Part shown: one piece after another, positions 30,539-31,818 of the stretch
Numbering within the stretch: position 1 is the stretch's first letter
Layout: each line of letters starts with the position of its first letter
Source of the DNA: Escherichia coli
Lineage (GTDB): Bacteria > Pseudomonadota > Gammaproteobacteria > Enterobacterales > Enterobacteriaceae
Assembly (NCBI RefSeq): GCF_030013595.1
Contig: NZ_CP122768.1
DNA length: 64,000 bases
Reading direction: 5' to 3' (one strand)
The notes under the pieces: generated by a model
The model's input: the letters and a program-made list of their open reading frames with translations, nothing else
Told to the model about the DNA's origin: nothing
Database searches by the model: none
Translations under genes and position numbers: made by a program

Positions 30539-31035
30539 TTCGAGTAGAAATTCCCATTGATGCGCCGGGTATTGATGCCCTGCTGCGTCGTTCATTCGAA
30601 AGTGATGCGGAAGCGAAGCTGGTTCACGATCTGCGTGAAGATGGCTTTCTGACGTTGGGGCTGGTGGCGACAGATGACGAAGGTCAGGTCATTGGCTATG
30701 TGGCATTTAGTCCGGTTGATGTGCAGGGCGAAGACCTGCAATGGGTCGGCATGGCACCGCTGGCGGTAGATGAAAAATACCGTGGACAGGGGCTGGCACG
30801 CCAACTGGTCTATGAAGGACTCGATTCGCTCAATGAGTTCGGCTATGCCGCAGTGGTGACGCTGGGCGATCCGGCGCTGTACAGTCGTTTCGGCTTTGAA
30901 CTGGCGGCTCATCACGATCTGCGTTGCCGCTGGCCGGGCACTGAAAGCGCCTTCCAGGTACATCGTTTAGCGGATGACGCGCTGAACGGCGTAACCGGTC
31001 TGGTTGAGTATCACGAGCATTTCAATCGCTTTTAA
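30532..31035 (+). CDS. yhbS: GNAT-family N-acetyltransferase
   Basis: 167-aa ORF; overlaps the ubiT stop by 7 nt. Confidence 0.9.
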
Positions 31036-31324
31036 TCTCCGGGGTTTGCAGGCTGCTCAACAGCTCTGCAAACCCTGCGCCTTCCGCTACCAGACGTTCT
31101 TTTTGCCGTTTGGTCAGTTGCTTAACGCGATATTCTGCCCGTAACGCCAGCGAACGATCGCCCACTGGCGCGGAAAACGCCAGCGTTAGTTCTCCTTTCC
31201 CGCGCAGTGCTTTCGCCCCTTTGCCGCTTTGGTGCTGCTGATAGCGGCGTTCGACATCTGTGGTGATCCCGGTATAAAGCTTATTGTCGGCGGTACGGAT
31301 CAAGTAAAGAAACCAGGGTGTCAT
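31022..31324 (-). CDS. yhbQ: GIY-YIG domain protein (UPF0213)
   Basis: 100-aa [34 protein letters not shown], a GIY-YIG signature. Confidence 0.9.
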
Positions 31325-31374
31325 CGTCTGCGTCGCATGTTAAGGTCAGGCCCACAGTATAAAAGAGAACAGCA

Positions 31375-31797
31375 ATGGAAACACTCACCGCCATCAGCCG
31401 TTGGCTGGCAAAACAACATGTTGTCACCTGGTGTGTGCAGCAGGAAGGGGAACTCTGGTGCGCTAATGCCTTTTATCTTTTTGATGCGCAGAAAGTCGCC
31501 TTCTACATTTTGACGGAAGAAAAAACGCGCCACGCGCAGATGAGTGGGCCGCAGGCGGCAGTTGCCGGAACTGTAAACGGTCAGCCGAAAACGGTAGCGT
31601 TAATTCGCGGCGTGCAATTTAAAGGCGAGATCCGCAGGCTTGAAGGTGAGGAAAGCGACCTCGCACGCAAGGCGTACAACCGTCGCTTTCCGGTTGCCAG
31701 AATGCTGTCGGCCCCGGTATGGGAAATCCGGCTTGATGAAATCAAATTCACCGACAACACGCTGGGCTTTGGTAAAAAAATGATTTGGCTACGTAAC

Positions 31798-31818
<21 letters not shown>
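31375..31818 (+). CDS. yhbP: UPF0306 protein YhbP
   Basis: 147-aa ORF matching E. coli YhbP. Confidence 0.88.

Follow-up and report, generated by a model that had tools for sequence, protein, structure and literature searches.

Tail-to-tail overlaps of fixed length at yhbS/yhbQ and yhbP/yhbO, two neighbouring convergent gene pairs of Escherichia coli

The locus and its two overlapping junctions

The window analysed here is a stretch of 64,000 nucleotides of Escherichia coli DNA, and among its genes are five in the order ubiT-yhbS> <yhbQ yhbP> <yhbO (Table 1). The 3' end of ubiT overlaps the start of yhbS, which is now named hqbA, by 7 nt, and the two genes form a single transcription unit as judged by RT-PCR (Arias-Cartin 2023), an operon that is also described in the HqbA paper. 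This unit is inducible by Fnr, and yhbS is expressed aerobically too (Arias-Cartin 2023; HqbA paper). The order of the four genes from yhbS to yhbO is kept across the Enterobacteriaceae. Within E. coli, the 3.1-kb region around both overlaps is identical (100%) to that of strain HCP5S3_I2 and is found in 5424 of 5426 complete genomes, and the four coding sequences and both overlaps are alike in the RefSeq annotation of HCP5S3_I2 and in MG1655, where the genes are b3153-b3156 and lie in the opposite orientation.

All four open reading frames are genuine genes, on the evidence of Pfam for three of them and of conservation for YhbP. The GNAT domain of YhbS occupies residues 19-124, the GIY-YIG domain of YhbQ residues 4-76 of 100, and the DJ-1/PfpI domain of YhbO residues 3-168 of 172; the Pfam search gave no match for YhbP, though the protein is conserved. 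In the 50-bp spacer that separates the divergent starts of yhbQ and yhbP, a scan with the sigma-70 consensus gave no match and a search by eye for a LexA-type box found none evident.

Table 1. Genes, overlaps and transcript features at the locus, in window coordinates (a point in the strand column marks features given without a strand)
Feature	Position	Strand	Remarks
ubiT CDS	30014-30538	+	first gene of the ubiT-yhbS transcription unit; RefSeq annotation
yhbS (hqbA) CDS	30532-31035	+	GNAT acetyltransferase, Hfq-binding protein; ORF listing, RefSeq, Pfam
yhbQ CDS	31022-31324	-	GIY-YIG nuclease; ORF listing, RefSeq, Pfam
yhbQ/yhbP divergent spacer, start to start	31325-31374	.	50 bp; sequence and annotation
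yhbP CDS	31375-31818	+	YhbP family; ORF listing, conservation
yhbO CDS	31798-32316	-	DJ-1/PfpI deglycase; RefSeq, Pfam; annotated ATG start, MSKK
Overlap 1, yhbS/yhbQ 3' ends	31022-31035	.	14 nt
Overlap 2, yhbP/yhbO 3' ends	31798-31818	.	21 nt; both codon registers coincide
Palindromic stem-loop in yhbQ	31040-31077	.	perfect 10-nt arms; RNA folds on both strands
Primary 3' terminus of yhbS mRNA	31083-31085 (~31084)	+	TRS study, PMC10687069
yhbP-strand read-through, antisense to yhbO	31819-32188	+	Adams et al. 2021, PMC7815308; coarse resolution

Each convergent pair consists of two real genes on opposite strands that have their 3' nucleotides in common. The overlaps of 14 nt between yhbS (plus strand) and yhbQ (minus strand) and of 21 nt between yhbP (plus strand) and yhbO (minus strand), from which the sequence-only reading of this DNA had started, are exact in the ORF listing, in the sequence itself, in RefSeq and in MG1655.

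E. coli has 663 overlapping pairs of adjacent coding sequences, of which 75 are convergent (Huvet & Stumpf 2014, PMC4161906). In the first 50 kb of the window we find eight convergent junctions, two of them overlapping, and the six others have gaps of 40, 155, 7, 117, 115 and 49 nt. That two overlapping junctions follow one another, with a divergent pair of genes between them, is mildly curious and no statistical anomaly. What does exceed chance, judging from comparison of the sequences across species, is the evolutionary constancy of both overlaps.

Overlap length and dual coding in the Enterobacteriaceae

The comparative set was obtained by a YhbP scan with one genome per species, which gave 80 loci, all of them from Enterobacteriaceae and with YhbP identities of 75-99%; at each locus the four genes were located and each was extended to its own stop. 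At yhbS/yhbQ the overlap measures 14 nt in 79 of 82 sequences; the other three, from Citrobacter, have 4 nt, and a gap is seen in none. The yhbP/yhbO overlap, scored in 58 sequences, is 21 nt in 42 and 15 nt in 13 (55/58), with single cases of 25 nt and of 39 nt, the latter in K. pneumoniae, whose YhbO has 6 additional residues. yhbP has no adjoining yhbO in 24 of the 80 species. Two far longer yhbP/yhbO overlaps were considered as alternative architectures and rejected: that of 129 nt (MAG L035) reflects loss of a stop codon, with yhbP running 129 nt into yhbO, and that of 238 nt (L004) reflects a 7-nt frameshift deletion.

The spacer of the neighbouring convergent pair yraQ/dolP served as a control, and in 46 of these loci its length lies anywhere between 34 and 492 nt. 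Because this spacer varies so widely at the same loci, the overlapping junctions are frozen relative to an ordinary convergent spacer. A search for YhbQ homologues returned close relatives alone (identity of at least 77%), none of which was informative on the origin of the overlap outside the Enterobacteriaceae.

The two C-termini that meet at each junction differ in their degree of conservation. The C-terminus of YhbS (...VEYHDHFNRF-stop) is 82-100% conserved per position and that of YhbO (ending ...ALRLLGA-stop) 83-98%, whereas the tails of YhbQ and YhbP show 20-58% conservation at most positions, and the YhbQ tail (residues 77-100) is variable in both sequence and length, with in-frame indels. 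yhbQ stops at TGA in 51 sequences and at TAA in 27, in both cases antisense to a T(C/T)A that straddles the YhbS codons Phe165-Asn166. At the other junction a YhbO Leu codon, TTA or CTA, gives on the opposite strand the TAA or TAG at which yhbP stops. The conserved core of YhbP ends ...KKxxWLR, and in the 24 species without yhbO the protein is 2-7 residues shorter (ending WLRDL-stop, WQR-stop or WLRD-stop). Since YhbP is shorter where yhbO is absent, its tail in E. coli, NSGTEQA, is nothing more than the YhbO C-terminus ...LRLLGA-stop read in antisense. Two short YhbQ variants of E. coli (89 and 92 aa) were considered as natural truncations of the tail and rejected; they carry internal in-frame deletions and their tails are intact.

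Tails that are poorly conserved and lie outside the recognisable domains are also what would be seen if the annotation had overextended one gene of each pair, with no overlap between the true coding regions. However, stop codons, and not the choice of a start, set the 3' ends, the same stops recur in 80 species, and the YhbQ tail keeps its frame through its indels, and the reading of the overlaps as an annotation artefact is already effectively refuted.

The likeliest cause of the fixed overlap length, as far as the comparison of sequences can tell, is dual coding, in which the conserved C-terminal codons of YhbS and YhbO supply the antisense stops for the tails of YhbQ and YhbP; the length would be fixed because the DNA is under a double coding constraint, as the comparative data show. 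In this model the less constrained gene (yhbQ or yhbP) would have run into its more constrained partner up to the first antisense stop, and dual coding would then hold the arrangement, so that a role of the overlap as a regulatory device would probably not be required. The constancy of the overlaps might also be due to selection for transcript overlap itself, and the comparative data do not separate the two. At the yhbP stop the YhbO Leu codon is TTA or CTA in every species, which shows selection on the position of this stop and thus slightly more than passive constraint; TTA and CTA are rare Leu codons in E. coli. As dual coding alone can freeze the length of an overlap, conservation of the overlap is in itself no evidence of regulation.

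Transcript ends within the partner genes

There is no intergenic DNA at either junction, and transcript ends therefore form inside the partner gene. From the same lack of space it had been concluded that there is no room for terminators. For yhbS this is wrong, as terminator-like elements can reside in the coding sequence of a partner: a conserved palindromic stem-loop lies within yhbQ, and the mapped end of the yhbS mRNA lies about 8 nt beyond it.

The stem-loop begins 5 nt past the yhbS stop and lies in the last ~18 codons of yhbQ, with its other strand encoding YhbQ residues ~83-95. It consists of a 12-bp outer and a 4-bp inner stem (~16 bp) and is foldable on either strand, with RNA fold z-scores relative to shuffles of -4.2 on the plus strand and -4.5 on the minus strand. 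No U-tract is present on either side, the tails being CGCCUUCC on the plus strand and CCGGAGAUUA on the minus strand, and the element is thus not a canonical intrinsic terminator, in which a G+C-rich stem is followed immediately by a U-tract. A consensus scan for intrinsic terminators found none at either junction. The Rfam search identified no known RNA family; a match to CRISPR-DR22 at 29946-29982 (E 0.24) was rejected as chance.

In the 50 species with a long YhbQ tail, 76.5% of cells in the stem are paired, compared with 71.7+-0.8 in shuffles (0/500), and pairing falls to 26-54% if the two partners are slid out of register. The 70 nt past the yhbS stop have, across all loci, a median fold z of -2.2, and the same stretch past the yhbQ, yhbP and yhbO stops gives medians of -1.0, -1.0 and +0.5 respectively. 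Enterobacter, Klebsiella and Kluyvera, which have shorter YhbQ tails, are without this stem-loop and have another stem, GCGCCTC-N22-GAGGCGC followed by TCTTTCT, slightly deeper in yhbQ. One pair of the stem alternates between G-C (26 sequences) and C-G (13 sequences), and the covariation of the hairpin rests mainly on this one pair, among related sequences.

Published 3'-end mapping (Nat Commun 2023, PMC10687069, Supplementary Data 2-4) gives the primary 3' terminus of yhbS as MG1655 3300206-7 on the minus strand, and the same study depicts exactly this hairpin, at -24.9 kcal/mol and with a 50-nt yhbS 3'UTR. By our own conversion of the coordinate to the window, the terminus falls ~49 nt past the yhbS stop and ~8 nt past the stem, and the 3'UTR lies entirely within the yhbQ coding sequence; the final ~63 nt of the yhbQ coding sequence and the yhbS mRNA are consequently complementary. 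By this mapping the ubiT-yhbS mRNA ends at this point, and its end could stem either from termination or from exonuclease trimming.

The appearance of the hairpin raises the question of whether it might stop transcription in both directions. Ju et al. are said to have described, in 2019, overlapping bidirectional terminators at convergent gene pairs. Bidirectional terminators reported by Wang et al. (bioRxiv 10.1101/2022.10.23.513370) at convergent pairs are hairpin-dependent, unlike intrinsic terminators in appearance, Rho-independent and driven by collision. If the yhbQ stem-loop were of this type, it would make polymerases from either direction pause, and head-on and trailing collisions would bring about their release, independently of Rho and of a U-tract. 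Consistent with this, at yhbS/yhbQ, and not at yhbP/yhbO, a palindrome with no canonical terminator features lies at the convergent junction; it is equally stable on both strands, it is conserved with some covariation, and the yhbS 3' end lies just beyond it. No Rho termination region is reported at the yhbS/yhbQ junction (Adams et al. 2021, PMC7815308), which is compatible with such a terminator and no test of it. However, the end is mapped on one strand only, a yhbQ terminus being absent from the datasets searched, and a minus-strand yhbQ end at ~31032, likewise ~8 nt from the stem, would precede the stop codon at 31024-31022 and leave a non-stop mRNA, an awkward design. Moreover, termination by collision is most effective in pairs with high expression (bioRxiv 10.1101/2022.10.23.513370), which these genes do not have, trimming by exonucleases back to a stable stem accounts for the yhbS end just as well, and the three genera without this hairpin have their different one further downstream. 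We consider it unlikely that the stem-loop acts as a bidirectional terminator. An extended version would have strong ubiT-yhbS transcription (under Fnr in anaerobiosis, for example) truncate yhbQ transcripts ~8 nt past the stem, with polymerases pausing or colliding there, and the resulting non-stop mRNA be cleared by tmRNA, which would make HqbA and YhbQ mutually exclusive by way of an RNA element within coding sequence, with an analogous Rho-based asymmetry coupling yhbP and yhbO; this we hold to be very improbable.

Rho reportedly terminates read-through and antisense transcription, and 3' ends are reportedly trimmed to stable stems, as is said to have been described by Peters et al. in 2012 and by Dar & Sorek in 2018. 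At the yhbP/yhbO junction conserved RNA structure was looked for and none was found. A weak 7-bp stem at 31856-31872 inside yhbO was considered as a terminator and rejected, because it falls on the stretch that encodes the conserved YhbO peptide DQLVTSR and no experimental 3' end is recorded for it. A Rho termination region is recorded on the yhbP strand, where it is classed as antisense to yhbO, with its peak at MG1655 3299102(-) (Adams et al., eLife 2021, PMC7815308, Supplementary file 2); this corresponds, at the coarse resolution of 800-nt windows, to ~32188 of the window, inside yhbO and ~370 nt past the yhbP stop. The upstream/downstream read counts change from 77/20 to 115/143 when bicyclomycin is added (Rho score 4.8, p 2.7e-9; PMC7815308), and the drug thus raises read-through, as is characteristic of a Rho-dependent terminator. 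C-rich, G-poor RNA lies downstream of each stop, and past the yhbP stop it includes a stretch at 31859-31938 with a C/G ratio of 1.9. On the bicyclomycin data, transcription on the yhbP strand is stopped by Rho in this part of yhbO, although the transcript concerned could start at an internal antisense promoter instead of the yhbP promoter.

For yhbQ, yhbP and yhbO, discrete 3' ends are found neither in PMC10687069 nor among the curated Term-seq ends of PMC7815308, and there is no entry for these genes in the SMRT-Cappable-seq supplement or in the supplement of a study on transcriptional interference (PMC10349824). The yhbQ and yhbO transcripts may well have Rho-dependent or heterogeneous ends.

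Antisense transcripts, regulation and known systems

Since transcripts end inside the partner genes, the two mRNAs of a pair have complementary 3' ends, and this complementarity would be constitutive, which is the architecture of a convergent excludon, for which Listeria provides the paradigm. The expectation that the two pairs produce mutually antisense 3' ends is borne out by published data, namely by the excludon list, by the yhbS end inside yhbQ and by the read-through of the yhbP strand into yhbO. Ends upstream of the overlaps, which would have spoken against it, are not what the published data give for the yhbS and yhbP strands. Sanmartin et al. (NAR 2025, PMC12288877, Table 1) count 165 convergent excludons in E. 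coli MG1655, and both yhbO-yhbP and yhbQ-yhbS are on their list, which is based on detection in at least 50% of 58 RNA-seq samples; overlapping transcripts of the two neighbours are thus on record for each pair. The observation is real, ordinary and, as both pairs are in the published excludon map, already known.

It had also been proposed that the overlaps reflect reciprocal regulation. A literature search for tests of reciprocal regulation on yhbS/yhbQ or yhbP/yhbO found none, and we regard such regulation within either pair as a possibility to which we give low odds. In the form of functional convergent excludons, the overlaps would exist to make the partners mutually exclusive through transcriptional interference and through cutting of the sense/antisense duplex by RNase III. 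Whenever one partner is induced, be it ubiT-yhbS by Fnr in anaerobiosis or yhbO in stationary phase, the other would then go down. Membership of both pairs in the E. coli excludome is in keeping with this, as are the reduced single-cell co-expression and higher synteny that excludon pairs show as a class (PMC12288877), the conservation of the overlaps and of the four-gene order across the Enterobacteriaceae, and the Fnr induction of ubiT-yhbS, by which the two sides are differentially regulated. However, overlap of the coding sequences makes any co-expression score as an excludon, so that the listing adds little, and validation by p19-captured dsRNA is not feasible for convergent excludons in E. 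coli (PMC12288877). Furthermore, reads on the yhbP strand are low (77 per 800 nt) and collisions should be rare, and the loss of yhbO from 24 of the 80 species has left a shorter tail as the sole visible change in yhbP. On a multicopy plasmid, deletion of yhbQ or yhbP has little or no effect on the yhbS-dependent phenotype. We find it doubtful that the pairs are functional excludons in this sense. Interference by polymerase collision or RNase III may occur, probably to a modest extent at the measured transcript levels; the low yhbP-strand reads, the repeated loss of yhbO and the automatic scoring as an excludon together suggest that any regulatory interference would be modest.

We therefore favour, with a probability of roughly 0.72, an account in which these are genuine short tail-to-tail overlaps held by dual coding, with transcript ends inside the partner genes and with no regulation required. 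As things stand the overlaps have little import, being two among some 75 convergent CDS overlaps in E. coli. If reciprocal regulation were true, four poorly understood stress and repair genes (HqbA/YhbS, YhbQ, YhbP and YhbO) would be coupled via their 3' ends, and the locus would be a compact and conserved test case for the excludon idea. There is also a practical consequence, in that knock-outs and tags at these 3' ends will disturb the neighbour, as in the tagging of yhbS with SPA, where the reverse primer runs across the hairpin (Arias-Cartin 2023).

The two junctions resemble four known systems. At yhbS/yhbQ, as in the bidirectional terminators of the Ju and Wang type, a palindromic hairpin that lacks a U-tract is found where convergent genes meet, with a defined 3' end just beyond it, but here a 3' end has been mapped for one of the strands, the hairpin precedes the stop codon of yhbQ and expression is modest; yhbP/yhbO has no comparable hairpin and uses Rho, and the likeness at yhbS/yhbQ is one of appearance. 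The yhbP strand resembles Rho-dependent read-through termination (Adams et al. 2021, PMC7815308) in the bicyclomycin-sensitive stop of untranslated antisense RNA within yhbO, direct data existing for one of the four paths of read-through, and this is ordinary housekeeping with no specific regulatory element. Like the convergent excludons of PMC12288877, where both pairs are named, the genes are opposite-strand neighbours whose transcripts overlap at the 3' ends; in contrast to the paradigm, the coding sequences themselves overlap, so that transcript overlap is automatic and not the result of an unexpectedly long UTR, and whereas the defining consequence of the paradigm is mutually exclusive expression via interference or RNase III, the present pairs are listed as excludons on their transcript overlap. 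A further likeness is to the short tail-to-tail CDS overlaps of Huvet & Stumpf (2014, PMC4161906), which are a few to a few tens of nucleotides long as set by the position of the stop codon and from which the overlaps described here show no essential difference; what is particular to this locus within that class is that the two junctions are only two genes apart and that their constancy across the family is very strong.

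Variation and loss at the yhbP/yhbO junction

Two natural departures from the present yhbP/yhbO arrangement involve the stop codons themselves. At an Enterobacter MAG locus (L035 in our YhbP scan, which takes one genome per species) the yhbP stop is lost and the gene extends 129 nt into yhbO through a stop-poor antisense frame, and at a K. pneumoniae locus (L081) it is the TGA of YhbO that is lost, lengthening the protein by 6 residues and giving a 39-nt yhbP/yhbO overlap. These two loci are natural cases of stop-codon drift at this junction. In two Escherichia lineages (L004 and L005) there is a 7-nt deletion about 40 nt past the yhbP stop, flanked by short direct repeats (cgtccggTGTGCGGctgg becoming cgtccggctgg), which shifts the frame of the final ~20 yhbO codons and leaves an overlap that is now 25 nt or more.

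The region downstream of yhbP cleanly lacks yhbO in 24 of the 80 Enterobacteriaceae species (loci L007, L013, L009 and 21 others), including E. albertii, E. whittamii, the Citrobacter freundii complex, Kluyvera and Trabulsiella. Because yraR directly follows yhbP in several of these yhbO-less taxa (E. albertii, E. whittamii, Citrobacter and Trabulsiella), we conclude that yhbO has been lost repeatedly.

The yhbS 3' UTR and YhbQ alleles

Published 3'-end mapping data (Supplementary Data 4 of PMC10687069) place coverage of the yhbS 3' UTR approximately 4.5-fold above that of the coding sequence, with values of 0.94, 0.88 and 0.80 as against 0.19, 0.20 and 0.16. This excess hints at a stable, hairpin-protected yhbS 3' fragment, antisense to the yhbQ tail.

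Some E. coli strains carry in-frame internal deletions of 8–11 residues within the GIY-YIG domain of YhbQ (protein variants P0036, P0051, P0054 and P0071); the C-terminal tail is whole in all four, which are possibly inactive alleles.

Other features and junctions in the window

Coordinates of features in the window, with MG1655 equivalents
Feature	Window	MG1655
yhbX/argG junction	11302-11310	
CRISPR-DR22 match	29946-29982	
ubiT/yhbS overlap	30532-30538	
yhbS ATG	30532	
ubiT stop (TAA)	30536-30538	
yhbS 3' UTR	31036-31084	3300206-3300254
lpoA/yraN overlap	35856-35898	

At the start of yhbS there is a 7-nt same-strand overlap with ubiT, and translational coupling inside the ubiT-yhbS operon fits this arrangement. 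The ubiU/ubiT divergent promoter region gives a weak match to the Rfam family CRISPR-DR22, scoring 21.9 bits where the gathering score is 50 (E 0.24); we reject it, as an A/T-rich stretch almost certainly produces this hit by chance. Elsewhere, lpoA and yraN, both on the minus strand, share 43 nt, an unusually long overlap for two genes read in the same direction. The genes yhbX (plus) and argG (minus) converge with a gap of just 7 nt, and this pair is likewise in the published list of convergent excludons of E. coli (Sanmartin et al. 2025, PMC12288877).
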